DNA of 27,095 nt from a virus (taxonomy: Duplodnaviria > Caudoviricetes): IMG/VR virus record IMGVR_UViG_3300048762_000473, positions 1 to 27,095 of that record; one strand, written 5' to 3'. The number at the start of each line of letters is the position of its first letter. Within the stretch, counting starts at the first letter, position 1. Under the pieces are notes generated by a model. That model did not search any database and was not told where the DNA came from. It saw only the letters and a list, made by a program, of their open reading frames with translations. Shown piece after piece: positions 418 through 27,095 of this stretch. The translations under genes and the position numbers were made by a program.

Positions 418-681
418 TTGAGTGAAAAATGGAAAACGGAAAAAATTGGTGTTGTAGCCCTTTGCAGAATAAGCGCTAAAGGCGGTGAAGGCTTGTACTT
501 GTATATTCCCAAGAATTTCGCTGATGCCTACGGTATTTTGGGTGCGGAGTTTGCTGAGGTGCAGTTTAGGAAGCTTTTCAGGGCGAAGCCTTTGGATTCT
601 GAAGAAACGACTGGACCTGTTGATCTTAGATGTCGAAGCAAGAAAAAGGTAGAGGAAGAGGAGATAAAAGAAAATGAGTGA
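418..681 (+). CDS. AbrB/MazE/SpoVT-like swapped-hairpin DNA-binding protein
   Basis: GGEGLYLYIPKNFADAYGILGAEFAEV resembles the AbrB-type pattern G.Sl.i.IPk.ia..lgi..Gd.vev; acidic C-terminal tail; overlaps the next gene. Confidence 0.55.
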   Translation: MSEKWKTEKIGVVALCRISAKGGEGLYLYIPKNFADAYGILGAEFAEVQFRKLFRAKPLDSEETTGPVDLRCRSKKKVEEEEIKENE

Positions 682-1237
682 GAAGAAAACGACTTTGAGT
701 GTTCCGGCGGCTTATGTGCCTCTGCTAGAAGATATTCGATTGTTGAAGAGTGATGAGCAAAATCCTAATCGGACTACGGTTAAGCAGCGTGAGCAGATTT
801 GGAAGAGCCTCAGTAAATACGGCTGGACTTATCCTATCATCACGAATAAGGATGGTGTTTTTACGGATGGGGAGCAGCGTGCGGAGGTTCTTCGTGAGCA
901 TGGGGAGTTTTTTGCTCCGGTGCTTCGCCTAGACGTGGAAGATGTTGACCGGCGGATGCTTCGGCAGATTCTCAATAAACTCAAGGGTACTCATAACAAG
1001 GAGTTGGATGCGGCTGAGTTTAAGCGGATCGCGGAGCTGGGGCAGAAAGAGGACCTGAAGTTATTGTTGGCGTCTGTGGGTGAGAGGCTTCCGGATGATT
1101 TGAGCGGCAAGAAGGATTCGGTGACGGTTCCTGAGACTTGGGAGCTCATTATTGAATGCAAAGATGAGAGTGAACAGCAGCGGTTTTATGAGAAGTTGAA
1201 GACGGAGGGGTATAGGCTACGGATTTTGACATTGTAA
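674..1237 (+). CDS. ParB/Srx N-terminal domain protein
   Basis: NPN...KSLSKYGWTYPIITNKDGVFTDGEQR matches the ParB-N motif (NPn...SI..yG...Pi.v.....iDGehR); short C-terminal domain ECKDESEQQRFYEKLKTEGYRLRIL. Confidence 0.85.
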   Translation: MSEKKTTLSVPAAYVPLLEDIRLLKSDEQNPNRTTVKQREQIWKSLSKYGWTYPIITNKDGVFTDGEQRAEVLREHGEFFAPVLRLDVEDVDRRMLRQILNKLKGTHNKELDAAEFKRIAELGQKEDLKLLLASVGERLPDDLSGKKDSVTVPETWELIIECKDESEQQRFYEKLKTEGYRLRILTL

Positions 1238-1899
1238 AAACTTGGAGTCAAGCGGATAGTTTTCGAGCTCAAAGCGTGGTTGGCTCGTTTACGTTGTTGG
1301 ATGTGAAGTTGGAGAAGCGTATCAAGGGGTCTTTGCCGATTGAAGAGATGCCTTGGCAGGTAGGCGTAATTGTTGGGCGTAGCGGATCGGGCAAGAGTAG
1401 TATCGCTAAAGAATTGTTTCCTGAAGCATACATTCGTGCCTTCGAGTATAACAACAAAAGTATCCTGGATGATTTTCCCTCTGGATTGCAGACTGGGGAT
1501 ATTACTAAGGCATTGTCAAGTGTTGGCTTCGCTAGTCCACCGGATTGGCTCAAAAGTTACGATTGTCTTTCTCAGGGGGAGAAGATGCGGGTTGATATCG
1601 CTCGTGCGTTGTGCTTGGATAGGGACCTGATTGTCTTTGATGAGTTTACGAGTGTTGTTGATCGGGAGATTGCGAAGGTTTCTGCGTTTGCTATTGCTAA
1701 AGCGGTTCGCAGATCTAAGAAGCAGTTTATCGCTGTTACCTGCCATTATGATGTTGTTGATTGGCTTGAGCCCGATTGGGTGCTCTGTACGGATACGATG
1801 GAGTTTACGCGAAAAAAAGAAGCCGGCCGCCCGTTGAGCTCAAAGTTTATCGGTGCGGCTCTAATCTGTGGCAGATGTTTCGGCAGTATCACTATCTAA
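1219..1899 (+). CDS. Soluble ABC-family ATPase (start uncertain: frame open from 1216, first canonical start is GTG 1276)
   Basis: Walker A GRSGSGKS, signature LSQGEKMR, Walker B/D-loop IVFDEFTSVVD and H-loop VTCH; no neighbouring permease. Confidence 0.9.
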   Translation, partial: TDFDIVKTWSQADSFRAQSVVGSFTLLDVKLEKRIKGSLPIEEMPWQVGVIVGRSGSGKSSIAKELFPEAYIRAFEYNNKSILDDFPSGLQTGDITKALSSVGFASPPDWLKSYDCLSQGEKMRVDIARALCLDRDLIVFDEFTSVVDREIAKVSAFAIAKAVRRSKKQFIAVTCHYDVVDWLEPDWVLCTDTMEFTRKKEAGRPLSSKFIGAALICGRCFGSITI

Positions 1900-2303
1900 G
1901 CGGATCTATTGCTAAGGGTTCCAGGTGTTATGTTGCGGTGTATCAGGATAAGCCTGTTGGGTTCATTGCGGTTATGCATATTCATATGAAGAGTAGGTAT
2001 TTTCGGGTGCATCGGTTGGTGGTTTTGCCTGATTACCAGGGGATAGGCTTAGGGAAGAGATTGCTGAATTTTATAGCGGAGCTCTACACTTCGCAGGTAA
2101 AAGCGCCTTTCTACATTGTTACCAGTAACCCTCAGATTGTTCGGGGGAATTTGGATCGTTGGAGTGTTCGGCGGTATGGGCATGTGAAGCGTTCAGGAGA
2201 AGACACTCGCTTGAATAGTGAGATTAAAGCTAGTGTTAGTGCCAAGCGTATTAGTATAACTTTAGAGTATAAGCCGATTGTTGGGCAGGACTGTATTAAA
2301 TGA
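1812..2303 (+). CDS. GNAT acetyltransferase (Mom-like HY motif), probably translated as a -1 frameshift fusion to the ABC ATPase
   Basis: FRQYHYLS, CYVAVYQDKPVGFIAV and acetyl-CoA motif A RLVVLPDYQGIGLG; lies in the -1 frame and overlaps the ATPase 3' end from the A7 run at 1812-1818. Confidence 0.85.
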   Translation, partial: KKRSRPPVELKVYRCGSNLWQMFRQYHYLSGSIAKGSRCYVAVYQDKPVGFIAVMHIHMKSRYFRVHRLVVLPDYQGIGLGKRLLNFIAELYTSQVKAPFYIVTSNPQIVRGNLDRWSVRRYGHVKRSGEDTRLNSEIKASVSAKRISITLEYKPIVGQDCIK

Positions 2304-2342: not shown

Positions 2343-2852
2343 TTGAATGCTGAGCTTTTGAATAGACGTGAAACTTTGCTCAAGTATATGGTTAAGGGTT
2401 CTAAGCTTCAGGTTGTTGCGGAGGAGATGACGAAGGATATTTCTGATTTAGTTGAACGTGAAAAACAGATTGCTGTGATTCGTCGAGACTGGGGCAACCG
2501 TAAACACTGGATGACTAATGTTGTGCGTCTTCAGGATGAGTCATTTTTGGCTGAGTTGATTGCTGGGATGAATGAGGCTATGAAGCATTGTTGGATTGAG
2601 GGGTTGCGGGAGAAGAATAATGCTTCTGTTCGTGTGGCTGCTTTGCGTTCGATTATTATGGGGGAGTCAAGGGTTGGTTTGTTGTTGATGAAGGCGGGGG
2701 TTATTCAGGTGGCGCCGCAGCAGATTGAGTCGAATGTGACGATTGCGGGGACTCCGTTTGATGTGGATCCTGAGTTTAGACGTTTGTTGCTAGCTGAATC
2801 TGAGCGTCAGCGGCTTGAGAAAGCGGGGCAAAATGTCAAGTCTCAGTCTTGA
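2343..2852 (+). CDS. Probable terminase small subunit (N-terminal HTH-like, helical)
   Basis: Lies immediately upstream of and overlaps TerL; 169 aa and helical. Assignment is mainly positional. Confidence 0.55.
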   Translation: MNAELLNRRETLLKYMVKGSKLQVVAEEMTKDISDLVEREKQIAVIRRDWGNRKHWMTNVVRLQDESFLAELIAGMNEAMKHCWIEGLREKNNASVRVAALRSIIMGESRVGLLLMKAGVIQVAPQQIESNVTIAGTPFDVDPEFRRLLLAESERQRLEKAGQNVKSQS

Positions 2853-4101
2853 AAAGACTATTCCTGGCGAGAATAGTTTACTTTATTGCCCGACGCCTAA
2901 GCAGTTTATGTTTCATGCTGGTCGCGGAGTGTATTATGAGCGGGCTGCTTTGTGTGGGGGTGGCGCTGGAAAAACTATTTGCGGGTTGTTTGAGGATATT
3001 CGTTGGGCTCTTGATTATCCTGGATCTGTAGGAGTTATTACTGAGCCTTCTTACCCGATGGTGCGCCTCAACATTATTCCAGCGTTGGAATCAAAGTATC
3101 TGTTGGGGTGTGCGTTTCCTTTTACACGTCACCCATACATTGCTAATTTTAGTCGACTTGAGATGCGCCTTGATTGGAAGAATGGTTCGCAGTGGTGGTT
3201 TCGCAGCTGGGATAATCCTGAGTCGATGGAAGGCGCAAACATTGATTATATTCACCTAGACGAGGCAAGGTTGATCCTGCATTTGGATACTGCTTTGTTG
3301 ACGGCTAAGCGTCGGCTCCGCGGATCTGGAAGGTGCAAGGTTCCCATTAATCCTGCTCTGTGGATAACGACGACGACTGACAAGTTGTTGAGTGTCTTGT
3401 TTAATGAGTTGGAGAATCCGTTGACTAAGAATCCGGAGTCGAAGATTTATCGTTGGAGTATTTTTGATAACCCATTTTTGCCTAAGGCCTTCATTGACGC
3501 GATAGTTCAAAGTCACACCGGAGGTCTTGCTGAACGCTTCGTGTATGGTAGGTTTGCGAATGTTGGTGCTGGGAGTTTTCCGTTTGATACTTCTGTGCAT
3601 GTTCGGGATCAATCTGATAAGCGGTTGTTTCGTGATGTCCGTTACGGTGTGGATTTTGGCTGGACTAATCAGTCTGCGATTGTGGTTTTGGCATATGATT
3701 ATGATGGGCGGGTGTGGGTGCTTGATGAGTTTTATAAGACGCAGTGTTCAGCTGAGGATTTGATTGCTGTTCTGCAGAAGTTTTTTGGGTTGTATGGGCG
3801 GGGTGAGATTTGGTGTGATAAGTCTGAGCCTGAGTCTATTGTGAAGATGCAGCGGGCGTGTTTGCCTGCTCAGGCTTATCCGCATAGGCGTGAGGATGGG
3901 ATTCGTGAGTTGGGTGCCAGGTTTCCTAAGGCGGGGGATGGGTTGCCCAGGTTGTTCATTTCGCATCGTTGCATAAACCTAATATCAGAACTTTTGGAGT
4001 ACAAGGTTGATGTTAAAGAACGTGATCATGCAGTTGATGCGTTGCGGTATGCGTTGAAGTTGCAGGTTACGGCGCCTTTGGGGGCATTTAGGTTTGGGTG
4101 A
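2833..4101 (+). CDS. terL: Terminase large subunit (PBSX/SPP1-like)
   Basis: Walker A GGGAGKT, Walker B YIHLDEA, coupling motif TTT, DNPFL, RNase H-like GVDFGWTN and C-terminal DHAVDALRYA. ATG 2833 is preferred over TTG 2815. Confidence 0.95.
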   Translation: MSSLSLEKTIPGENSLLYCPTPKQFMFHAGRGVYYERAALCGGGAGKTICGLFEDIRWALDYPGSVGVITEPSYPMVRLNIIPALESKYLLGCAFPFTRHPYIANFSRLEMRLDWKNGSQWWFRSWDNPESMEGANIDYIHLDEARLILHLDTALLTAKRRLRGSGRCKVPINPALWITTTTDKLLSVLFNELENPLTKNPESKIYRWSIFDNPFLPKAFIDAIVQSHTGGLAERFVYGRFANVGAGSFPFDTSVHVRDQSDKRLFRDVRYGVDFGWTNQSAIVVLAYDYDGRVWVLDEFYKTQCSAEDLIAVLQKFFGLYGRGEIWCDKSEPESIVKMQRACLPAQAYPHRREDGIRELGARFPKAGDGLPRLFISHRCINLISELLEYKVDVKERDHAVDALRYALKLQVTAPLGAFRFG

Positions 4102-6948: not shown

Positions 6949-7505
6949 CTGAGCAGGCCGTTGACGGGGTTGTTGTTGATTATTGGCAATCTCAAGATGG
7001 TATTCTAGATCGTTTTAGTATGCTTGCGGAGGATGTGCAGCTTGGGACTTTTAATGGCGCCGTCAAAGTTTATGGGACTGCCTATGGGGTAACAGACTTC
7101 ACTATTAGCGGAGACTTGAAAGCCACAAGTTGTGAGTGGTGTGTTTCTCATGTTGGCGTCACTTATCATCGTGGACAGTTTATGCCAGATTTGCCCCGGC
7201 ACCCCAAATGCCCGCATTTTTATGATATTACACGTGTTGGTGAAGACCCGCAGGTTGCGCAGGAAAAAGCGTTTTTCGAAGCGATGAAGAGCGCTATAAA
7301 TGATTGGTATCAACGGGCATTAGATTTCAATGCTGTTGGCTACATGAAAAATATCGTTAGTACCTTCACCTATGAGGTTCAAGACATCATTAGTAGTCCT
7401 TCTTTTTGGAAGTTGTCGCTTGAGAATCAGTCTAAGATTAATGCGCTTATAGTTGAGTTGACTGCCCAGCTTGAGAAGGTAACGGGAGAAAAGCTTTCTC
7501 TATGA
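6945..7505 (+). CDS. MuF/SPP1 gp7-like minor head protein
   Basis: TSCEWC...G..Y...PDLPRHPKCPH resembles the MuF C..C...P.HPnCRC motif; located after the portal. TTG 6945 is preferred as start because it is coupled to the upstream stop. Confidence 0.75.
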   Translation: MTEQAVDGVVVDYWQSQDGILDRFSMLAEDVQLGTFNGAVKVYGTAYGVTDFTISGDLKATSCEWCVSHVGVTYHRGQFMPDLPRHPKCPHFYDITRVGEDPQVAQEKAFFEAMKSAINDWYQRALDFNAVGYMKNIVSTFTYEVQDIISSPSFWKLSLENQSKINALIVELTAQLEKVTGEKLSL

Positions 7506-8020
7506 GAATCACCAATAAGCAACCTGAGTACAAAGATTTTGATATTGGTGATTGGACGTTTGGCTGCCCGACTATAGTCGTCTGCGAGGGCGAGCAGGGC
7601 AAGTTGAAGATTGGGAAGTTCTGCAGCATCGCTGATGGCGTTAGGATCCTACTTGGGGGCGAGCACAATTATAGGAATGTGTCGTCTTACCAGTTTGATA
7701 ATCTGTTCATAAGGTTCAAGCAATTGGGTCCTACTGTGAGGACTAAGGGCGACGTCGTCATTGGGAACGATGTTTGGATAGGGTACGGCGCATTGATTTT
7801 GAGCGGAGTTACGGTTGGAGATGGAGCAGTGATAGGCGCTGGATCAGTTGTTACGAGAGATGTCAAGCCTTATGCAATAGCATGTGGTAACCCCGCTCGC
7901 ATAATCAAGTATCGCTTCAACAAATATGTTATTAGGCGTCTTCTTAGGGAGAAGTGGTGGGATCTGCCCTGGAAGGAGCTGCGTGAGAAGATTCCGTGGC
8001 TTATGAGTTCCTCTGTTTAG
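7502..8020 (+). CDS. CatB/Vat-related hexapeptide-repeat (left-handed beta-helix) O-acetyltransferase
   Basis: LKIGKFCSIA, GGEHNY, KGDVVIGNDVWIG, GVTVGDGAVIGAGSVVTRDV.PYAI..GNPARIIKYRF and KWWD. Confidence 0.92.
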   Translation: MRITNKQPEYKDFDIGDWTFGCPTIVVCEGEQGKLKIGKFCSIADGVRILLGGEHNYRNVSSYQFDNLFIRFKQLGPTVRTKGDVVIGNDVWIGYGALILSGVTVGDGAVIGAGSVVTRDVKPYAIACGNPARIIKYRFNKYVIRRLLREKWWDLPWKELREKIPWLMSSSV

Positions 8021-11766: not shown

Positions 11767-13857
11767 CTATTTCTGCGGCACTAATTTTATGAAGCTTTCG
11801 ATGTTAGAATCTTCAAGATTTTGATAAACATCGAGATATTTTCCTGTACGGTATGACCTGTTCTTATGAAGACCTTTCAATTGCCTAATCGTCTCTCCTT
11901 TACGTGGCTCTAAAGAGTTAGCTTGATAACTAGCTTCAAAATTAGCTAACAAGGTTGCTGCTTTTTCCGCTATTTGAGTCTCATTTTTGCTCAAAGCAAC
12001 GGCGCCAATTACACCAATGCGCGCAGCAAGCCTAGAAACACCATAACCCGATTTGTCACGTTTAATCATTGAAAGACACATTTCATTTAGCGCCTCTAAG
12101 CCTCCATCGGTTATATCTTTTGCAAATTCAAGAGCTAATACAGCTATCGTTGTAACTGCGTCACCAATTTCTGATGGAGCTGATAAAAACCATTCTTCAT
12201 CAAAGCTATATCCAGCAATATGAATGTAAGCTGACTTCATAATTTTAATTACTATCAGCAGCTCTTCCTTGAATCCTTCTGTTAAGGATTTGAATTTTTC
12301 ATTCAGCATTAATAAAGATAAGTCAAGCAAACAATCAATGCTTGAACCAAGTATATGGGCTGAATGGAGTTTAGATGAAGTATTCGCTATGTTGCCTATT
12401 GCTCTTACTAACTGATTCATGATCTCTTTGCTAAATTCTTCTCTTTGGAACGTTTCTTTCTCTGGATATTCTTCATTCTTTGCTTTTAACGCCGCAAATG
12501 CAACTTTTTGAATAGAATATTCTGGTAGTAAGGTAAAGAGGCTTGTTTGAATTGCCCAATGATTCATACGGTTTTCCATACTCAGCGATGCAAGTTTATC
12601 TATAAATTTTAAAATTCTTCCAGATGCGTAGACATTCCCCTTGAATAAAACAAAACCGTAAAGTAAATCCTTGAGCTGAATAAGTGCAATCGATAACATA
12701 TACCAGCTGTTTTTTTGGATTCCTGCTTTTCCCATTTCAAAGATATAATCCGATGATAATCCTTCCCCACCATTTTTTTGAATAGCCGAATAGCCCACTT
12801 TCTTCATTGACTCCATTGCTATTGTCGAGACATCAACAAAATCTTGTTCAAGAGCTTTCATTCCAAGGTCACGAATATGTGTAAACACTAGGTTCGTGCT
12901 TTGAGGTGGGTAACATTCACTAGATTTCAGCTCAGTTGTCAAACAGCCTATTTCTGTGAAAGCGTACAGGACTTCCTGCATTAAGGCTGTGTCTTTGTTG
13001 TCTAATCCAAGGCTAAATGCCGTTAATAGTTGAGCATTGATATACTCCAAAAACTTGTCTTGAGTCGTAAAGTCATCCTTTCTAATAGTAATATAATTTC
13101 TTGTGATTCTTGTTATCGCCTGGAATCCTTTAATGCTAGTTTCAATTTCTCTTCTTGAAGCGGCTTTGTTTATGACATCATTTATCAATAGAACCTGTTT
13201 TTTTATCGGTTCTTGTAAAGTAGAGTCATTGTAAAAAACAAATTGACGATAAAGTGGCGTACTTACTATAGAGCGTTCATAGGTAGTGCTTGGTTTGATC
13301 TTTTTAATTATTGATTGGACTTTTGAAGGAATTGATGTGATATATTTAATACAATGCTTTTCCGCTCTTTCAATGATATTTCTAGGGTCAATTAGATTAA
13401 TTATGTGAATAAAATGCAATCCAAGTATAAAAAACGAGAAAATGAATGTAACTAATATCATATTAACAATGTATAAATCATTTGAGAATTGTAAACCCAT
13501 TATCGAAAATATTAATGCTCCAACATAATAGCTAAAGAATAATAGTGTAAGGTCATCGCGTTTGTAACTCTCAATAATGCTTGCAGTATAATTGCTCGCT
13601 GCATGTTGAATAACAATTATGGCGATTGAAAAAGATATGGCGAGAATTGTGGCTAGAATTGCGCCAATTGAAGAAAGCATAGTTTGAACCGAAGCAGTGT
13701 TCCAGACTAACCTTAGAGTGTATACATCAAGGGTTGGATTGATTTTTGAAAGAAGACTTGAACTCCAAAATAGGCAAAGAAAATACAAAGAGATAACTAA
13801 CCAAACATAATTTACCTTTATTTTCCGTAAACCAAACAATCGCAAGCTTTTTTTCAT
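11767..13857 (-). CDS. Membrane protein, DUF2254-like N-terminal TM domain plus large helical cytoplasmic region (moron)
   Basis: About four TM helices at the N-terminus with ILATILAISFSIAIIVIQHAASNYT (DUF2254-type Q.as..ys motif); AT-rich and antisense to the structural operon. Confidence 0.75.
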   Translation of the reverse strand: MKKSLRLFGLRKIKVNYVWLVISLYFLCLFWSSSLLSKINPTLDVYTLRLVWNTASVQTMLSSIGAILATILAISFSIAIIVIQHAASNYTASIIESYKRDDLTLLFFSYYVGALIFSIMGLQFSNDLYIVNMILVTFIFSFFILGLHFIHIINLIDPRNIIERAEKHCIKYITSIPSKVQSIIKKIKPSTTYERSIVSTPLYRQFVFYNDSTLQEPIKKQVLLINDVINKAASRREIETSIKGFQAITRITRNYITIRKDDFTTQDKFLEYINAQLLTAFSLGLDNKDTALMQEVLYAFTEIGCLTTELKSSECYPPQSTNLVFTHIRDLGMKALEQDFVDVSTIAMESMKKVGYSAIQKNGGEGLSSDYIFEMGKAGIQKNSWYMLSIALIQLKDLLYGFVLFKGNVYASGRILKFIDKLASLSMENRMNHWAIQTSLFTLLPEYSIQKVAFAALKAKNEEYPEKETFQREEFSKEIMNQLVRAIGNIANTSSKLHSAHILGSSIDCLLDLSLLMLNEKFKSLTEGFKEELLIVIKIMKSAYIHIAGYSFDEEWFLSAPSEIGDAVTTIAVLALEFAKDITDGGLEALNEMCLSMIKRDKSGYGVSRLAARIGVIGAVALSKNETQIAEKAATLLANFEASYQANSLEPRKGETIRQLKGLHKNRSYRTGKYLDVYQNLEDSNIESFIKLVPQK

Positions 13858-16432: not shown

Positions 16433-16822
16433 ATGTCAACTCCATTGTTAGGACGGAATGCTCGCTTATACAAAGACGGCAGCCCGATTGGGTTCTGCAA
16501 AAATATTTCTGTGAAGGCTTCTGCTGAACTTATCAAAGAATACAGTATGGACTCCTTGGTGCCCGCTGTCATAGGCGCTGGAAAACAATCTTTCACCTGG
16601 AGTGCTGAGCGACTTTTCACTGATGATACTTACGTTGCTTTGCTTTTGGCTGGAACCCAGTTTGACCTAGTGTTTAACCCTGATGGAACTCCTCAAGATG
16701 CCGATTTAGCTGAGACTTGGACTAACTGCACTATTCTTTCGTGTGAAAGAACTGCAGGCGAAAGTGGCGGTTTGCTTGAGAAGATTTCTGGCGAAGCAGA
16801 AAGCGTAACAACTCCAGCCTAA
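16433..16822 (+). CDS. Major tail tube protein, paralog 1
   Basis: 129-aa beta-rich protein (GRNARL...IG..KNISVK...GKQSFTWS) upstream of the chaperone and tape measure genes. Confidence 0.8.
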   Translation: MSTPLLGRNARLYKDGSPIGFCKNISVKASAELIKEYSMDSLVPAVIGAGKQSFTWSAERLFTDDTYVALLLAGTQFDLVFNPDGTPQDADLAETWTNCTILSCERTAGESGGLLEKISGEAESVTTPA

Positions 16823-16912: not shown

Positions 16913-17305
16913 ATGTCTATACCTGTACTTGGAAGAAACGCCCGACTTATCAAGGGCAATACACCAATCGGTTATGGCAAGAACATATCCGTAAAAGCGT
17001 CTGCTGAATTGATAAAAGAGTATAGTATGGATGCGTTGACTCCTGCGGTTTCTGGATCTGGAAAACAAAGCTTCACTTGGAGCATGGAACGCTTATTCAC
17101 AGACAAAACATATCTCGACTTGCTCATCAATGGAACCCTATTCGACCTAGTCTTTGCCCCCGAAGGTACACCCACGGCAGGAACCAAATATGAAACATGG
17201 AACGACTGTGTTATCCTCTCATGCGAGCGAACCGCTGGGGAAACTGGCGGGGTCCTTGAAAAAATCAGTGGTGAATCAGGTTCAATTACGTTCCCTCCAG
17301 CATAA
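16913..17305 (+). CDS. Major tail tube protein, paralog 2
   Basis: 92 of 129 residues identical to paralog 1 in an ungapped hand alignment. Confidence 0.8.
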   Translation: MSIPVLGRNARLIKGNTPIGYGKNISVKASAELIKEYSMDALTPAVSGSGKQSFTWSMERLFTDKTYLDLLINGTLFDLVFAPEGTPTAGTKYETWNDCVILSCERTAGETGGVLEKISGESGSITFPPA

Positions 17306-17323: not shown

Positions 17324-17800
17324 ATGACTCCAGAAACCAAAGATAATAAGGCTAAATCTGCCCCTAAGGATTTCACCGTTAAAACTAATTGGGAGGAGCA
17401 AGCTGAGGCAGACGACCTTAAGCGAGCGAAAGCTGATTCAGCTCAGAGGCGAATATTCGACCCCGTTAAGCTTACTCAGAACTCCAACCTAATCCATGAG
17501 GAGGAAGATAGCAACCTTGGATTCATCAAATATGGTGAACTCACCCTCCACGATGCCTTCATTATCGAGCGATGCAAAACAGACCAGGATAAAACCTCGA
17601 TGGCTGCTTACCTGATGCTTAAGAAAGGCAACCCTGACATGCCGGTTTACACTCCTGAAACCATCGTTGAATGGGAGAAAACAATGCCGATGGCTGAAGG
17701 CGCTATGCTTCTGCTATTCATACGGAGAACGCCTGCTTTTTTACGAACGCAATCGGTGCCTGGCTCACAAAAAACCACGATGCCCAAAACATCGCCTTAG
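17324..17800 (+). CDS. Tail assembly chaperone (gpG-like)
   Basis: Located between the tail tube and tape measure genes; slippery T-TTT-TTA near the 3' end. Confidence 0.75.
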   Translation: MTPETKDNKAKSAPKDFTVKTNWEEQAEADDLKRAKADSAQRRIFDPVKLTQNSNLIHEEEDSNLGFIKYGELTLHDAFIIERCKTDQDKTSMAAYLMLKKGNPDMPVYTPETIVEWEKTMPMAEGAMLLLFIRRTPAFLRTQSVPGSQKTTMPKTSP

Positions 17801-17910: not shown

Positions 17911-20651
17911 GCGACAACAGCATCCTAATCGATATTCAAGCAACTGACAACGCTAGTTCTGTTATTTCAGGTGTCTCTAACACACTTGTTGCCAGTTTTA
18001 AGAATGTCGATGCAGCTTCTGCAGGGTTAGCTTCCTCAGTCAATTCTGCAATCGCTCCTTTATCTCAAGTTGAGCAGGCCCAGTTAGGTTCAGCTGATGC
18101 TTCAATACATCTTCAAGATGCCCAAACTCAGCTTAGTTCTAAGCAAGCTAACCTTAGTAATGCTGTAAGGCAATATGGCGTTGACAGTGAGCAAGCCACC
18201 GTTGCTCTCAGGGATTTTAACAGTGCCCAATCCCAAGTTGCATCCCTCACTCCTCAAATTACCTCAGCAATAGAACAGCAATCAATCAACTACAAGGATT
18301 TAGCCATAAGTGTTTCAGGAGTTGCCACAGCCAGCTTCGGCCTTTACATGGCTTATGATAGTGTTGAGAAAGCCAGCGTTCAAGTTGACCGCGCAAACAT
18401 TCTAGTTAAATCCAGCACTAACACTGCTGAGAAAGCTCAAACCGCTTACAACGAAGCCGTAGCTAAATATGGAGCTAACAGCGCTGAGGCTGTTCAGAAA
18501 GCCACCGACCTCGGAATCGCCAATGACCGAGCTGCCCTTGCTACTGAACGCGCTCAAATGTCTGAAGACAACTATTCTAACTCTATGACGCGTGGAGCGT
18601 TAATGGTTATTCCTTCAGTTATCACCTTAACCGCTGGTTTATCTAGCGCTGTGAAAACCCTTTCTGATTCAGAAGGCATCGGGGCTGTTGCTGAAACCGC
18701 TTTGTCATGGGCTAAGATGCTTGCCGTGGCTCCAACCGCAACCCTCACAGCAGGCATGATTGGTTTAGATGCGGCTATGGATGCGAACCCAGTTGCCGTT
18801 GTTGTTTTAGCCATAGCTGCTTTAGTCGCTATCTTCATCGCCGCCTACACCTACATAGCCCCATTTAGGGATGCAGTGAATAGTGTAGGGTCAGCTATAA
18901 TGAACGCCCTCAAACCCGCTATCGATGTTATCGTTGGAGGTTTGACGTGGCTCTGGAACAATGTCCTTGTTCCCTTGGGAAATTTCCTTCTTGAGGTTTT
19001 CATTAAGAATCTCGAGGCAGTTGCTGCCGCTATCAAGTGGGTTTCTGATGGGATAGGCGCCATTGCTGGGTGGATAGGTGATTCATGGGCGAAGCTCACA
19101 GGCACTTTCAAGGATTCAGTTGCCCAGGGGATGGCTGATCAACTCGCTGTGGTCGAGAAGGGTTTAGCTGACCAAACCGCTGAGGTCAACAAGAAATATG
19201 ATGAGATGGTTTCCACAGTTGAAACCGCTTATACCGATGAAACCAATGCTGCGCTCGCTTCATGGAATAGCCGCCTTACCCAAGAGGTTACAGGTTGGGA
19301 TAAAGTCCTCAAGACTGCTAATGAGCAGAGCGATGCCTTGGTCGATGCTGTTACCTCAGGTTTGAAAGACACCGAGTCCTCAATTAACGATGGCTACGAC
19401 TCCCAACTCAAATCTCAGCAATCGGCATATAGCGACCAACTCGCAGGAATCAATAGTTTCTATGATGATGTCATAGCCACGACCCAAGACAAGCTTAATG
19501 CCATCAAGAATGCAAGGTCAACTGACCTCGATAACCTCGAACTCAACTACCTCCTACAGAAGCAAGCTATGGAAGGCACCCTCAACTCCTACGGAAGTAC
19601 CCTTACTGTTGAGCAGAAGCAGTCAGTCCTCTCAGCATTGGAGAAAACCTACAATGACAAGCGAAGCGACATCTCTGATAATTACAGAATCCAAGAACTC
19701 GAAGCCGAGAAAACCAACGATGCCAATATCGAGCAGGCTAACAAGGACAGGGCAGCCGCTCTCCTCGCCGCAGGGAACACTGAGATAGCCGCTGAATTAG
19801 CTCTCCTCAATTCCAAGAACTCCCAGTTAGCAGCAGCCGAGGTCGTTGCCAACGGTAAAATCGCCCAAATTAACAGGGACAGGAACGCCACTCTCAAGGA
19901 AATAATGAATGACAGGGACACTATTGAAAGCCAGCATACTGCTGAACTTAAGCTCATAGCTCAAAACCGTGAAGATGACCTCACAGCCATCGCCCGTACA
20001 GCGGCTTTGGAAAGGGAGCTTATAGCCAAGAACTCCAACGCATTAATCGCAGGGTACAATGGCACAGTTACAATCACAAGCCCTGGCGCTGCACCACTCA
20101 CAGTTCCTTCATCACCCGCAACTTCCCCCCTGCCACCTGAGCCTGGTTCAGCTAATGCACCTGGCGGTGTTAATTCTCCATGGCAACCTTCAACAACTCC
20201 AGCTCCAGCAGGCACCTTCTTCCCGATAGCCACAGCTCTCTCCCAGATGCTTTCCGCTTACCCATCTGCTTCAGGACCTCAAAACCTCGCTGACAAACTC
20301 GCCCTTATAACAATGCAGAACGGAGGCAAGTACAATGACGCAACTACCCTCGCACTCATGCTTTCCCAGAGTAAAGGTTGGTCAAGCGCTCAGCTCTCAG
20401 CTTTTGATGCATTAATACCTAGATTTGCTGAGGGAGGAACTGTTGATTCTCCTATGCTTGCTTTGATAGGTGAAGCTGGACCTGAGCGAGTTACTCCTCT
20501 CTCTAAGTTTAGTGAGTCCTCTCAATCTAACCAAACTAACACTATCTATGTTAACATTAACATTGGGGATATCTCGGCTGAAGTTGACCTTGACGATGTC
20601 AAGAAAGCCGTCATAGGCGGGGTAGTTATCGGCGTGGGGAGAAGAAGCTAA
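17907..20651 (+). CDS. Tape measure protein
   Basis: N-terminal I.I.A.D.AS, Ala-rich coiled coils, ANPV+hydrophobic segment, Trp-spaced amphipathic repeats and C-terminal FAEGG.V..P.LALIGEAGPE.V.PL. Confidence 0.93.
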   Translation: MSDNSILIDIQATDNASSVISGVSNTLVASFKNVDAASAGLASSVNSAIAPLSQVEQAQLGSADASIHLQDAQTQLSSKQANLSNAVRQYGVDSEQATVALRDFNSAQSQVASLTPQITSAIEQQSINYKDLAISVSGVATASFGLYMAYDSVEKASVQVDRANILVKSSTNTAEKAQTAYNEAVAKYGANSAEAVQKATDLGIANDRAALATERAQMSEDNYSNSMTRGALMVIPSVITLTAGLSSAVKTLSDSEGIGAVAETALSWAKMLAVAPTATLTAGMIGLDAAMDANPVAVVVLAIAALVAIFIAAYTYIAPFRDAVNSVGSAIMNALKPAIDVIVGGLTWLWNNVLVPLGNFLLEVFIKNLEAVAAAIKWVSDGIGAIAGWIGDSWAKLTGTFKDSVAQGMADQLAVVEKGLADQTAEVNKKYDEMVSTVETAYTDETNAALASWNSRLTQEVTGWDKVLKTANEQSDALVDAVTSGLKDTESSINDGYDSQLKSQQSAYSDQLAGINSFYDDVIATTQDKLNAIKNARSTDLDNLELNYLLQKQAMEGTLNSYGSTLTVEQKQSVLSALEKTYNDKRSDISDNYRIQELEAEKTNDANIEQANKDRAAALLAAGNTEIAAELALLNSKNSQLAAAEVVANGKIAQINRDRNATLKEIMNDRDTIESQHTAELKLIAQNREDDLTAIARTAALERELIAKNSNALIAGYNGTVTITSPGAAPLTVPSSPATSPLPPEPGSANAPGGVNSPWQPSTTPAPAGTFFPIATALSQMLSAYPSASGPQNLADKLALITMQNGGKYNDATTLALMLSQSKGWSSAQLSAFDALIPRFAEGGTVDSPMLALIGEAGPERVTPLSKFSESSQSNQTNTIYVNINIGDISAEVDLDDVKKAVIGGVVIGVGRRS

Positions 20652-21031
20652 TGGCTTGGTCGATAGGTTCAATCACTTTACCTTCAGGTCCCAAGGATAT
20701 CGCTGATGATTCTGACTGCGAGACTGATTCTCTTCCGCTTGACGGAGCTGAGTCCATAGTCTTTGCAACTGCCCCTGGTATGAGGATAGTTTCTTGGTCA
20801 GGCAGCTTATTTGACTCTTCAAGCCCTACTAAAGCCGATTTAGAATCTGACTATTGCGCTGCCCTTAGGGGATTCCAAGGGACTTCTCAATCAGTGGTTT
20901 CTCCAAGTGGAGCTTATACCGGTACATGGTTCATTAAGAAAGTCACATTATCTGAGCAGGCGGAAGGCACCTTAGCCCGCATCAGCTACACCATAATTAT
21001 GTGGCAAGGTTCATTCACGGAGGTTCTTTGA
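20651..21031 (+). CDS. Distal tail (Dit-like) protein, paralog 1
   Basis: 126-aa beta-rich protein directly after the tape measure gene (TAATG coupling). Confidence 0.65.
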   Translation: MAWSIGSITLPSGPKDIADDSDCETDSLPLDGAESIVFATAPGMRIVSWSGSLFDSSSPTKADLESDYCAALRGFQGTSQSVVSPSGAYTGTWFIKKVTLSEQAEGTLARISYTIIMWQGSFTEVL

Positions 21032-21034
21032 TTT

Positions 21035-21427
21035 ATGCCCGCTCCCTTAACTTGGACTATTGGAGATGTAGAGTTTCCCTTTAGTCCCTCCCAGATAAAT
21101 GACGAGAATGAGAGCGTGACCGAGTCTTTTGATTTAGACGGTGTTGCTGCAGGGATATTTGCAACCGCTCAAGGTGTTCGGGTTGTTCAAATCTCAGGCA
21201 GTATCGCCCTCGAAGGTTTAGATAAAGCCGCTATCGAAGCCGCTTATTCCGCTCCCCTTCGAGCTTACCAAGGCACATCCCAAACCGTTGAGTCTCCCTC
21301 AGGAGCCTATGATGGCGATTGGTTAGTCAAGAAGGTTTCATTTAAGGAGCAAGCCGAAGGCGCTTCACTCTCCCGCATAATCTACTCAATAACTCTCTGG
21401 AAACCCTCTGTTTTGGTGGTTCTTTAA
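21035..21427 (+). CDS. Distal tail (Dit-like) protein, paralog 2
   Basis: Shares W.IG, LDG, FATA.G.R, QGTSQ.V.SPSGAY.G.W..KKV, EQAEG and RI.Y.I..W with paralog 1. Confidence 0.65.
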   Translation: MPAPLTWTIGDVEFPFSPSQINDENESVTESFDLDGVAAGIFATAQGVRVVQISGSIALEGLDKAAIEAAYSAPLRAYQGTSQTVESPSGAYDGDWLVKKVSFKEQAEGASLSRIIYSITLWKPSVLVVL

Positions 21428-24877: not shown

Positions 24878-25618
24878 ATGAAAGAAATAACCCTTAAAGG
24901 AGAACATTGGCAGGACAACTTAATCGGCTTGTCATGGAATGATAGGCTCAAAGACGCCATCGCCCAGAAGTACCTCCGCGAAATCCGATTAGCCAAAGCC
25001 GAGTTAGACCTCAAAACCCTCGATTTAGGTGAAACCCCAATTCAATCCACGATTGAATGCACTTTCTTCACCGCCCTCAAAAGCCCTTCTAAACCCAAAA
25101 TCGAAGACATAGGCTTCAGCATCCCAGAAGACATGTTCACCAACAACTTTGGGCTTTGGCTCGCAGGCTTCTTTCAAGGAGCAAACCAGCTGAAGCCCAG
25201 CGGCGGCCAGTTCACTGGGATAAACGAAGCTAACGGAGGATTATCAGGCTTGATTTACGCAACCTACTACAGTTCCTATCAGTACCCATTCAACAACACC
25301 ACAGGCATGGGCACTCAATTCAAGATTGGTTCATCAAACGCCGCCGCCGCTAGAACACAGTACGCTATTCAAACAGCTTTCGGGACAGCTCCAGAAAGTA
25401 CCCGTTTCCCTACTGGGCCAGGCTGTTACGCCGTTGCAGGTGGAGTAATCAGCTTTTGCGGAGCCATCACAGCTGGAGGTTCAGGGACAGTGAACGAAGT
25501 GGCGTTGTTCGGTAACTGGTACAACGGAGTTGAAATGCTCGCCCGCGATGTACTTGGCGGGGGAGTAGCTTTTGTGGCTGGCAACAGCCTCGTGGCGACA
25601 GGAGCGATTAGCATATGA
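24878..25618 (+). CDS. Putative tail-tip/fibre-associated protein, paralog 1
   Basis: Shares DMFTNNFG, F..GS, IQTAFG.APES, ITAGGSGTV/INE and MLARD with the next two ORFs. Confidence 0.55.
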   Translation: MKEITLKGEHWQDNLIGLSWNDRLKDAIAQKYLREIRLAKAELDLKTLDLGETPIQSTIECTFFTALKSPSKPKIEDIGFSIPEDMFTNNFGLWLAGFFQGANQLKPSGGQFTGINEANGGLSGLIYATYYSSYQYPFNNTTGMGTQFKIGSSNAAAARTQYAIQTAFGTAPESTRFPTGPGCYAVAGGVISFCGAITAGGSGTVNEVALFGNWYNGVEMLARDVLGGGVAFVAGNSLVATGAISI

Positions 25619-26334
25619 GTGAATATGTAGGTTTAGAATGGACTAAAGAGCTTGAAGCATCTCTCCACAGAGACCACATAAGAGAGATACATAGGTTTAG
25701 AGCTGAAGACACCATAGCGAAGTTGAAAGCTAACAAACCCTATGATTCCCTGCTTGGCTCAATGATTGAGTCATCCATCGTTGTGGCTTTGAAAAGCAAA
25801 AAAAACCCTTCAATCGTGGCTTTAGGCAAAAACGTGCCTGAAGATTTATTCACTGATAACTGGGGTCAGTTCCTCGCCTCCTTTATTCAAGCGCCGAGTT
25901 TAGGTGTAGTCGGGTACCCAATGAAGCAGTCTTCAGGCGCTGTTTACCTCACAGAAACCAATTACGGCGCTTATGGAGGGCAATTTGGCGGATGGTGGAA
26001 TTACAGTAATGGCTCTTGCTCAGGCACTGGATTCCAATTCCAGTTTGGCTCTGGGGCGACAGCCGCTACGAGGGGAGATTTCAACATTCAAACAGCCTTT
26101 GGCGCATCCCCTGAAAGCGCAGTTTTCGATTGCGGCTTAGCCAATTATTCAGGAGGCTACATCACCGTCGCCAACAGCATCCCTGCAGGTGGCTCAGGCA
26201 CCATAAACGAGCTTGTCATGTTTATGATATGCAAACTGGGAAGTCTCAAATTCCTTATGAGCCGCGATATAGTGACAGCTGTGCCTTTCACTGCAGGCAA
26301 CGTGTTGATTGCGAGTGTGTCGATAGCGATTTAG
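25615..26334 (+). CDS. Putative tail-tip/fibre-associated protein, paralog 2
   Basis: EDLFTDNWG, FQFGSG, NIQTAFGASPES, AGGSGTINE and LMSRD; ATGA-coupled to paralog 1. Confidence 0.55.
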   Translation: MSEYVGLEWTKELEASLHRDHIREIHRFRAEDTIAKLKANKPYDSLLGSMIESSIVVALKSKKNPSIVALGKNVPEDLFTDNWGQFLASFIQAPSLGVVGYPMKQSSGAVYLTETNYGAYGGQFGGWWNYSNGSCSGTGFQFQFGSGATAATRGDFNIQTAFGASPESAVFDCGLANYSGGYITVANSIPAGGSGTINELVMFMICKLGSLKFLMSRDIVTAVPFTAGNVLIASVSIAI

Positions 26335-26348
26335 GGTAGGCGTTTGAT

Positions 26349-27095
26349 ATGGATGTTAAGCTGGTTGGGGAACATTGGAGAGACAACTTGGGCGGGCTCA
26401 AATGGAGCCAGCGCCTCCGAGATGCCATAAGCGAAACTCACATCAGAGACAACAGAATCCGAAAAGCTGAGTTGGACATTGAGAGGCTTGAGAGTGGAGG
26501 AGACCTCGACCAAACAATCTGCGAAGCTTCCTTCGTCACAGTCCTCGATTCTAAAGATAGAGTTAAAGAGGTGGGATTCAACGACCCCTCTGACATGTTC
26601 ACCAACAACTTTGGGTCGTTCCTCGCAGCCTGCTTTCAGCCTACATTGCATTTTAAGATGGGCGCATCATGGGCTATGAAGAACCTCTCCAATGCTGACA
26701 GAGGCTTCGATAGAGTTTATCAAACCTACTATGGTTCCACGAGGTACAACACCTACAACTCTTTGGCAGGCGGGACAAAGTTCCAGTTTGGTTCAGGCAA
26801 CAGCCAGCCTCTCCGAACAAACTACAATGTCCAGTCTCCCTTCGCTACAGCTCCCGAAAGCGGCTTGTTCCCTACTGGACCAGGCTACTTTAGTTATGGG
26901 ACTGGAGTCGTGAGCTTCGCTGGTATGATTACTGCTGGAGGTTCAGGCACCATAAATGAGCTTTGCCTCTACGCTTATTGGATGTACACCCAAAACAGTT
27001 GGGATACATTCATGCTTGCCAGAGATGTCTTGCAGAGCCCAATCACCTTCGTTGCTGGCAATAGGTTAGTTGCTAATGGAGTTGTGAGTTGTTGA
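26349..27095 (+). CDS. Putative tail-tip/fibre-associated protein, paralog 3
   Basis: GEHWRDNLGGLKW, DMFTNNFG, FQFGSG, APES..FPTGPG, ITAGGSGTINE and MLARD; the stop is the last codon of the window. Confidence 0.55.
   Translation: MDVKLVGEHWRDNLGGLKWSQRLRDAISETHIRDNRIRKAELDIERLESGGDLDQTICEASFVTVLDSKDRVKEVGFNDPSDMFTNNFGSFLAACFQPTLHFKMGASWAMKNLSNADRGFDRVYQTYYGSTRYNTYNSLAGGTKFQFGSGNSQPLRTNYNVQSPFATAPESGLFPTGPGYFSYGTGVVSFAGMITAGGSGTINELCLYAYWMYTQNSWDTFMLARDVLQSPITFVAGNRLVANGVVSC

Follow-up and report, generated by a model that had tools for sequence, protein, structure and literature searches.

A gene family that couples an ABC ATPase to a GNAT domain has been named as a predicted DNA-base acylase in phage pT24 (PMC7824862). 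Here we analyze a member of this family in a 27,095-nucleotide (nt) stretch of a tailed virus (IMG/VR record IMGVR_UViG_3300048762_000473, positions 1 to 27,095; hereafter the window), in which the ATPase and the GNAT lie in different reading frames and are predicted to be joined by a −1 frameshift. Coordinates are those of the window, and features lie on its + strand unless stated otherwise. The window gene has both domains of the described family, and the Tenacibaculum phage pT24 named there is a tblastn match of the window ATPase; it differs in that the passage on this family mentions no frameshift, two products, ACG start or archaeal members (PMC7824862). Two further enzymes are close to it. 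TmcA likewise carries an ATPase and a GNAT in one chain, with acetyl-CoA as donor and a base amine as acceptor (PMC13219725), but it is cellular, makes one product and has a helicase-type ATPase, whereas that of the window is ABC-type. Mom of phage Mu, whose acceptor is adenine N6, is also of the GNAT fold. It uses charged tRNA and requires an insertion resembling a helix-turn-helix (HTH) (PMC13219725).

With respect to decoding, the closest parallels are dnaX (tau/gamma) and magnesium chelatase, where a short ATPase and a long ATPase with an added domain come from one gene with A-run sites, and where ribosomal or transcriptional slipping and the arrangement of frames differ between lineages (PMC5009743, PMC3711429). 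These are cellular AAA+ ATPases, whereas the present family encodes a viral ABC ATPase. Among archaeal examples, fucA1 (A_AAA_AAT with a stem-loop) and the tail chaperones of haloviruses similarly combine an A-rich heptamer with a downstream stem-loop (PMC8211752). However, fucA1 requires the shift for its sole active product, while both products of the window gene look selected and its site recurs in about 90 loci.

The joint between ATPase and GNAT

The first-pass annotation of the window had treated the ATPase and the GNAT as separate open reading frames (ORFs). A single profile, phrog_11143, instead covers both end to end (ATPase at profile positions 11-201, E 5.5e-58; GNAT at 196-348, E 3.8e-31), and they are halves of one family gene, the ABC-ATPase-coupled GNAT of PHROG 11143. 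The crossover into the GNAT, which occupies the −1 frame, falls on CGA AAA AAA GAA (1810-1821); GNAT homology begins at about 1812, and the TTG listed as its start (1776) falls within the ATPase core. At the crossover lies the slippery heptamer A_AAA_AAA (1812-1818), which is in X_XXY_YYZ phase in the zero frame and is the predicted shift site. It is followed, 6 nt downstream, by a predicted stimulatory RNA hairpin (1825-1860; −20.7 kcal/mol, z −3.3 to −4.0), whose stem opens with GGCC, the most avoided 4-mer of the window (observed/expected ratio, O/E, 0.20). Translated without a slip, the gene terminates at 1897-1899 after 226 amino acids (aa); a slip back on A_AAA_AAA gives a chain of 361 aa, predicted to read FTRKK and then RSRPP across the joint. 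The predicted short product (1219-1899; about 25 kDa if begun at an ACG discussed below) would be the ABC ATPase with a 27-aa tail, and the GNAT domain in the −1 frame (1818-2303), recognized by PHROG, Pfam and a structure model, completes the predicted ATPase-GNAT fusion of 41 kDa. Between 1819 and 1899 the DNA is dual-coded, the tail of the short ATPase lying over the GNAT N-terminus; this stretch has a fixed stop, placed under the L of HYL, and low synonymous variation. A conserved heptamer and a downstream structure at 5-9 nt are both present at the window site, which we accordingly describe as a predicted −1 frameshift site.

Conservation of the joint was followed in 97 close loci (the window, 16 from IMG/VR and 80 from GTDB). 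The GNAT lies at −1 in 89 of them, in frame in two and at +1 in one; four are unscorable and one has no joint. The joint codons are NNA AAA AAA in 64 of 64 clean representatives (dereplicated by ungapped comparison, which somewhat overcounts distinct loci), while elsewhere in the same genes AAA AAA is used in only 13 of 96 Lys-Lys pairs and AAG makes up 46% of Lys codons. Synonymous variation is 0.1-0.27 in the dual-coded stretch versus about 0.55 elsewhere, constraint peaks at the joint, and 78 of the 82 anchored −1 loci have a GNAT frame that is intact 3' of HY. Relative to synonymous shuffles, the hairpin has z<−2 in 48 of the 51 loci with a run of seven As (A7), as against 1, 1 and 7 of 51 at control positions, and it is found in none of the 12 loci with A9. 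From this difference we suggest that the ribosome slips at A7 and the polymerase at A9.

The long product could alternatively arise by RNA-polymerase slippage on the A run, an explanation that concerns the decoding step only and that we consider improbable at the window site. Thermus dnaX provides the precedent for slippage on A runs (PMC5009743), 12 close representatives have A9 without a hairpin, and in-frame runs of at least eight As occur in 17 of 222 family representatives. The window, however, has only A7, in exact X_XXY_YYZ phase and with a hairpin at the usual spacing; moreover, contigs from RNA runs of its relatives bridge the joint without a gap, a weak argument given that contigs drop minor variants. 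Taken on these features, a ribosomal rather than a transcriptional slip is quite probable here. It is very unlikely that three separate proteins are made, with the GNAT produced alone, as a Mom-type enzyme, by ribosomes that start at TTG 1776 or re-initiate where the ATPase ends. The frame is open with a TTG at 1776, and 32 of the 81 family representatives introduced below have an ATG or TTG under the tail stop, which could permit re-initiation. Yet 1776-1811 encodes the conserved ATPase end in the other frame, the window has CTA beneath the stop, a GNAT re-initiated at that point would lack the invariant residues W19, F22, H26 and Y27, and tests against the Mom profile are negative (see below). 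It is scarcely credible that the offset reflects misassembly or gene decay. Homopolymers are error-prone and two loci do vary (L016, A10 and in frame; L134, A8 and +1), but the short-read contig of a second run (X3) spans 1802-1952 with 0 differences, run X1, possibly the source of the window DNA, matches the whole stretch, and the offset, the GNAT frame and the peak of synonymous constraint are kept across the close loci at the frequencies given above.

Two probable products across the family

Beyond the close relatives, we collected 484 loci, including the window, from five scans of viral sequences, one scan of genomes and eight annotated regions of phages; some contigs were retrieved twice by different scans before dereplication. 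The family counts leave out 39 of the 484 that failed the ATPase anchor and 29 more that failed the GNAT anchor, and among the 416 scored loci the GNAT is in frame with the ATPase in 213, at −1 in 200 and at +1 in three. Representatives at <70% identity number 81, of which 63 are in frame (fused) and 18 are split.

The split representatives carry a heptamer or homopolymer at the joint in 17 of 18 cases. The fused genes, which would need no shift to make the long chain, have an apparent signal of the opposite kind: 48 of 63 show at the joint a +1 signal like that of RF2, GG[AG]GG or GGGAG followed after 3 nt by [CG]TT, which is nearly always followed by C (synonymous null: mean 0.5, maximum 4 in 500). 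The RF2 signal likewise has 3 nt between its Shine-Dalgarno (SD) element and the shift site. It combines a CUU_U shift site with this internal SD (PMC5009743), and the family signal differs from it in having a sense codon in place of the RF2 stop. Four more of the 63 have a run of at least eight As at the joint. A +1 slip at the RF2-like joint would lead into the same tail frame that terminates the short ATPase of the split members. This frame is open for 24 codons and ends at the same stop, under the L or M of HY[LM], in every representative, the 63 fused and the 18 split alike; the null for the stop position is 16 of 63 and 5 of 18, and control frames stay open in 21-25 of the fused and 1-3 of the split ones. 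Internal initiation at the SD-like motif of the fused genes was considered and set aside, as rows inspected by eye have no start codon at the usual spacing.

On a FastTree phylogeny (179 rows, unrooted, joint columns excluded, from which we claim no direction of change), the eight joint types need at least 40 changes, compared with 113 when shuffled, and the loci of Bathyarchaeia type form one branch (support 100) amid rows from bacterial phages. Well-studied cultured phages are among the members, where the gene is annotated 'ABC transporter': in P335, 315.4 and Vinitor-27 this joint separates the two frames, with T-runs or other heptamers, and phiE255, Axumite and Komp_PAO1_1 have a fused gene. 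The window also has a second slippery heptamer, T_TTT_TTA in its tail-chaperone gene, which we counted for the two-product reading. Taken together, it is very likely that a short ATPase and a long ATPase-GNAT fusion are both produced, and the two products look selected while the mechanism of the slip varies. Some points weigh against this view of the joint. The lower stem of the hairpin is invariant, 0 of 7 consensus pairs having a compensatory change and covariation being not above shuffles; support for the structure therefore comes from its energy and from synonymous constraint. The close loci are related, and their counts overstate independent events. Under strict patterns, 6 of the 63 in-frame representatives have no signal and 4 have the SD-like part only. 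Recoding is nevertheless the best-supported result of our analysis.

No description of the joint or of the cassette turned up in our literature search, which did not extend to two papers of the Aravind group (2013, on DNA modification, and 2020, on ABC classification) or to supplements; these papers or the cluster tables of PMC3711429 may list the joint. PMC10848311 does not mention frameshift, ABC, GNAT or ParB, the first 300,000 characters of PMC5009743 do not mention ABC, and the main text of PMC3711429 does not mention acetyltransferase. In phage pT24, the published family example (L164:3433-3630), the deposited GNAT is broken further downstream and annotated as two genes.

The ATPase start and the upstream partner

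The window ATPase passes the Pfam ABC_tran cut-off and has Walker A (GRSGSGKS), signature (LSQGE), Walker B (DE), D-loop and H-loop motifs, which are invariant or nearly so in 108 homologues; the invariant residues are G53, S55, G56, G58, K59, L117, S118, G120, D141, E142 and H176. No invariant Q-loop Gln is found between Walker A and the signature in these 108 homologues. The cassette proteins have no membrane segment (maximum 19-aa hydropathy ≤1.3) and no permease family is found among 59 neighbor proteins scanned; an associated ABC-transporter permease is absent from the cassette, which bears out the earlier description of an ABC ATPase without a permease.

The ATPase probably begins at a non-canonical codon. 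Its homology starts at about 1219, 19 codons 5' of the first GTG (1276) and shortly after an in-frame stop at 1213, and its N-terminal motif FDIV precedes that GTG. At 1219-1221 lies an ACG, with a Shine-Dalgarno-like GGAGG (1204-1208) 10 nt before it. Of 79 close loci, 19 start three codons before the F of FDIV and 16 have ATG, TTG or GTG two codons before it, which is the position of the ACG; the remaining 44, of the overlap type, have no canonical start, and 41 of these have ACG at that codon. The spacing to the SD-like motif is kept in 37 of the 41 ACG loci, an in-frame stop lies just 5' of the ACG in 26, and the next canonical start comes anywhere between 3 and 95 codons later. The overlapping Leu codon of the ParB-like gene is CTA or TTA in 41 of 44 loci (background 22%). 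The simplest reading of this pattern is that translation starts at the ACG, which we regard as likely. A −1 shift from the ParB-like gene into the ATPase was rejected as a substitute for the ACG: no heptamer lies between the stop at 1213 and the stop of the ParB-like gene, and in relatives a canonical start takes the place of the ACG. In one locus, L155, the ATPase apparently starts at CTG.

The gene upstream (674-1237) encodes a ParB-N-like protein of 187 aa. The first-pass annotation's ParB-N call is supported by matches to PHROG 620/498 (PHROG ParB-like E 3e-14) and not by Pfam, since the window protein has no ParB_N (PF02195) match at E≤0.01; its homologues in P335 and Vinitor-27 exceed the Pfam ParB_N cut-off. 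Its C-terminal end (about 1127-1234) forms a small beta-alpha-beta domain of 35 aa that is a near-universal partner of the ATPase, being found upstream of it in 217 of 219 representatives with enough flank. In Mu-like phages without ParB-N, the small domain is a stand-alone ORF of 49-54 aa, and in L067, L070 and L387 ParB-N, small domain and ATPase are fused in a single ORF. Of 69 representatives, 66 have ParB-N itself upstream of the gene; proteins with ParB-N are activators of DNA dioxygenases in phages (PMC13229309). Com was considered as the identity of the small ORF that precedes the gene in Mu-like phages, but this ORF has no Pfam match and corresponds to the small partner domain. A complex prediction for the ATPase with the small upstream domain (score 0.00, mark 0.32) counts neither for nor against an interaction, and PADLOC returned only generic ATPase and ParB-N matches. 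As originally described from the sequence, the ParB-N-like ORF, the ATPase and the GNAT overlap and stand upstream of a probable terminase small subunit (TerS; 2343-2852, assigned by position only, without a Pfam or PHROG match) and a clear terminase large subunit (TerL; 2815-4101; phrog_2 E 2.6e-27), as judged from the ORF list, Pfam and PHROG.

Predicted acyl transfer, its target and the viral setting

The GNAT is confirmed by Pfam (Acetyltransf E 5e-11) and by a structure model (161 aa, pLDDT 89.6) with the plain GNAT element order. Its invariant residues are W19, F22, H26, Y27, R67, P72, Q75, G76, G78 and W116, and its canonical acyl-CoA loop, QGxG, is invariant, which points to acyl-CoA as the predicted donor. 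It shares with Mu Mom the GNAT fold, a basic surface, the HY motif and, in Mu-like phages, the genomic slot (PMC13219725): its isoelectric point is >9 in 81 of 81 representatives (median 10.1, against 5.6 for ATPase cores and 10.0 for Mom homologues), and H26/Y27 align in both comparisons with Mom H58/Y59, which matter for Mom activity (PMC13219725). However, there is no match of the window GNAT to Pfam Mom (PF25680) at E≤1, where Mu Mom itself scores 2e-75, and hhalign against Mom gives probabilities of 0.3% and 5.8%, the latter over the N-terminal HY region only. Mom's HTH-like insertion of about 35 aa is absent from the model, which has one short low-confidence helix at 132-136. R67 lies in strand 4 of the model, as R111 does in Mom, though the tools do not align the two. 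The D149/R151/Y159 block (AD..CG..G.VYQA), invariant in the Mom alignment, is matched as a loose pattern in only 6 of 81 representatives. The nearest solved folds are RimI, Naa50 and SpeG (Z 13-14, 10-17% identity); the top 50 rows of the fold search are acetyl-CoA GNATs, and Mom (8BV8) is not among the listed fold or sequence matches. The GNAT is thus placed nearest to ordinary acetyl-CoA GNATs, with no clear winner among them; this agrees in part with an outcome that the first-pass annotation had named as refuting its reading. In our comparison it does not appear to be a member of the Mom family, and 'Mom-like', as the first-pass annotation had it, is too strong as a statement of membership, also given the QGxG loop versus charged tRNA. 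Unlike Mom, it is proposed to need the ATPase and the small partner domain.

We propose that the cassette works as follows. Translation would begin at the ACG, a weak start that lies within the last part of the ParB-like gene, and output would thereby stay low. Most ribosomes would terminate at 1897-1899, and a fraction would slip on A_AAA_AAA ahead of the hairpin into the GNAT, a step with strong support, making the long fusion the less abundant product. ABC domains work in pairs, and short and long chains would therefore assemble into a unit of two ATPases and one GNAT. The upstream protein would contribute its small C-terminal domain as an accessory subunit, and ParB-N could serve as an optional loader. 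Double-stranded DNA would be opened or loaded at the expense of ATP, and the basic GNAT would acylate a base amine with acyl-CoA as donor, much as TmcA acts on tRNA. Finally, and this is the weakest step, acylation of newly made genomes near the terminase, late in infection, might shield them from host nucleases. On the evidence assembled here, ATP- and acyl-CoA-dependent modification of viral DNA is plausible and the best-supported functional reading, already predicted for the family. We lean slightly toward DNA as the substrate, give the combined mechanism, from recoding to a fusion acylating viral DNA bases, an even chance, and find a tie to packaging somewhat doubtful.

The support for a nucleic-acid target comes from the basic GNAT, the HY motif, the upstream ParB-N, the mom slot, domain fusions and the alignment of TmcA over both domains of the fused model, although at a low TM-score (see below). 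Scoring 8,000 candidates, we found 21 homologues >698 aa, of which five are fused to TerL (47-55% alike), one to DNA polymerase A and one to a QueC-like domain. Ten of the 21 have two ATPase domains before one GNAT in one chain, an arrangement that mirrors the proposed short-plus-long pair. These ten (P0131, P0132 and P0135-P0142) are apparently eukaryotic, and one is labelled Gymnodinium smaydae. In Mu-like phages the fused gene lies 3' of the tail-fiber genes, in the com-mom slot of Mu, and is followed by a formyltransferase gene. Other neighbors hint at a special acyl-CoA donor, as PanD is found beside 5 and CoA-transferases beside 6 of the 81 representatives; aspartate decarboxylase and CoA-transferase genes adjoin the cassette in L059, L074, L075, L335, L337, L345 and L394. 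The proposed coupling to packaging held in part: TerL lies within 3 kb in at least 47 of 67 family representatives, and the linkage is not obligate, with at least 18 of 31 in the Bathyarchaeia clade (lower bounds set by the queries).

Several observations weigh against acylation of viral DNA during packaging. Besides the closeness to ordinary acetylases and the poor hhalign result, no TerL was found within 3 kb of the gene in 20 of the 67 representatives overall and in 13 of the 31 from the Bathyarchaeia clade, and several of those without it lie among host genes. The five TerL fusions may all go back to one event, and the double-ATPase homologues appear eukaryotic and need not act on DNA. Furthermore, GGCC, CCGG, GATC and CTAG are strongly avoided in the window (O/E 0.20-0.50), and this under-representation of restriction-type palindromes argues against blanket protection by modification.

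Such points raise the alternative that the gene makes two products but that the fusion acetylates a protein, be it terminase, portal, another virion-assembly protein or a host target. This is unlikely in our judgment, even though the nearest solved folds are N-terminal and ribosomal-protein acetylases, the best weak NCBIfam match is RimI, and the TerL fusions and the restriction-site avoidance would fit as well. It sits poorly with the uniformly basic GNAT and the HY motif common to Mom, with the mom slot in Mu-like phages, which has no adjacent terminase, with other copies lacking a terminase, and with the fusions to DNA polymerase A and the QueC-like domain. The fusion could also be an ATP-dependent RNA acylase like TmcA, acting on tRNA or rRNA and kept scarce because it is toxic to the host. 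TmcA, the match of rank 7 for the fused model, aligns over both domains, the GNAT is basic, and expression would have two independent brakes, the weak start and the frameshift. ASCH-domain genes stand beside 13 of 81 representatives, and the ASCH protein YqfB has N4-acylcytidine hydrolase activity. The TM-score to TmcA, however, is only 0.30, the ATPase is ABC-type and not a helicase, and neighbors and fusion partners are DNA-packaging and DNA-replication proteins, which makes this explanation quite improbable.

A broader and distinctly tentative proposal is that the family is a widespread viral DNA acylator distinct from Mom, with two ABC heads and one acyl-CoA GNAT from one gene, and acting on genomes during packaging. 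Its recoding would have persisted from bacterial phages to viruses of Bathyarchaeia while switching between −1 heptamer plus hairpin, A9-A10 polymerase slippage, T-run slips and RF2-like +1 shifts. The family is common, with about 2,400 stretches estimated in one viral collection from the patterns of a single query. If this reading holds, constructs made from the ORFs as annotated would lack the enzyme in split members and give the wrong ratio of products in fused ones, and an assay of DNA modification would have to express both subunits and the small partner domain. It would also add a conserved −1 site to a very short archaeal list, provide a natural series in which opposite slips reach one two-product outcome, and name concrete phages in which to seek an uncharacterised DNA base.

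The window carries a tailed-virus morphogenesis block with TerL, portal, protease, HK97-type capsid, neck and tape measure by Pfam and PHROG searches. Loci in Bathyarchaeia genomes match its ATPase at 91-97% identity, and the 80 best genome loci for it comprise 77 archaeal records (74 named Bathyarchaeia or Bathyarchaeota) and 3 bacterial bins. Two peat metagenome runs contain all sampled words of the window and may be its source. The virus thus appears to be a tailed provirus of Bathyarchaeia type, although we infer this host assignment from similarity. Some family copies lie among host genes or near an integrase. Single Bathyarchaeia genomes carry several copies (within L081-L160; six loci in one record set), and many of these copies have no terminase and stand with two or three uncharacterised small genes among host genes or near an integrase; they are possibly small elements or remnants.

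Elsewhere in the window, the T_TTT_TTA heptamer (17737-17743) lies near the 3' end of an ORF at 17324-17800, and the −1 frame from it stays open until a stop overlapping the tape-measure start, which would be a classic tail-assembly-chaperone frameshift. Paralogues occur at three places: two in tandem at the tail-tube position (16433-16822 and 16913-17305) are 72% identical, a pair of small proteins after the tape measure (20651-21427) is 47% identical, and three tandem proteins of 240 aa at the end of the tail block (24878-27095) are 34-46% identical. A hexapeptide-repeat O-acetyltransferase (7502-8020; Pfam Hexapep), which we take to resemble the xenobiotic acyltransferase family, is inserted between the portal region and the head protease. 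Just 3' of the capsid gene, a low-GC gene for a DUF2254 membrane protein lies on the opposite strand (11767-13857, −).

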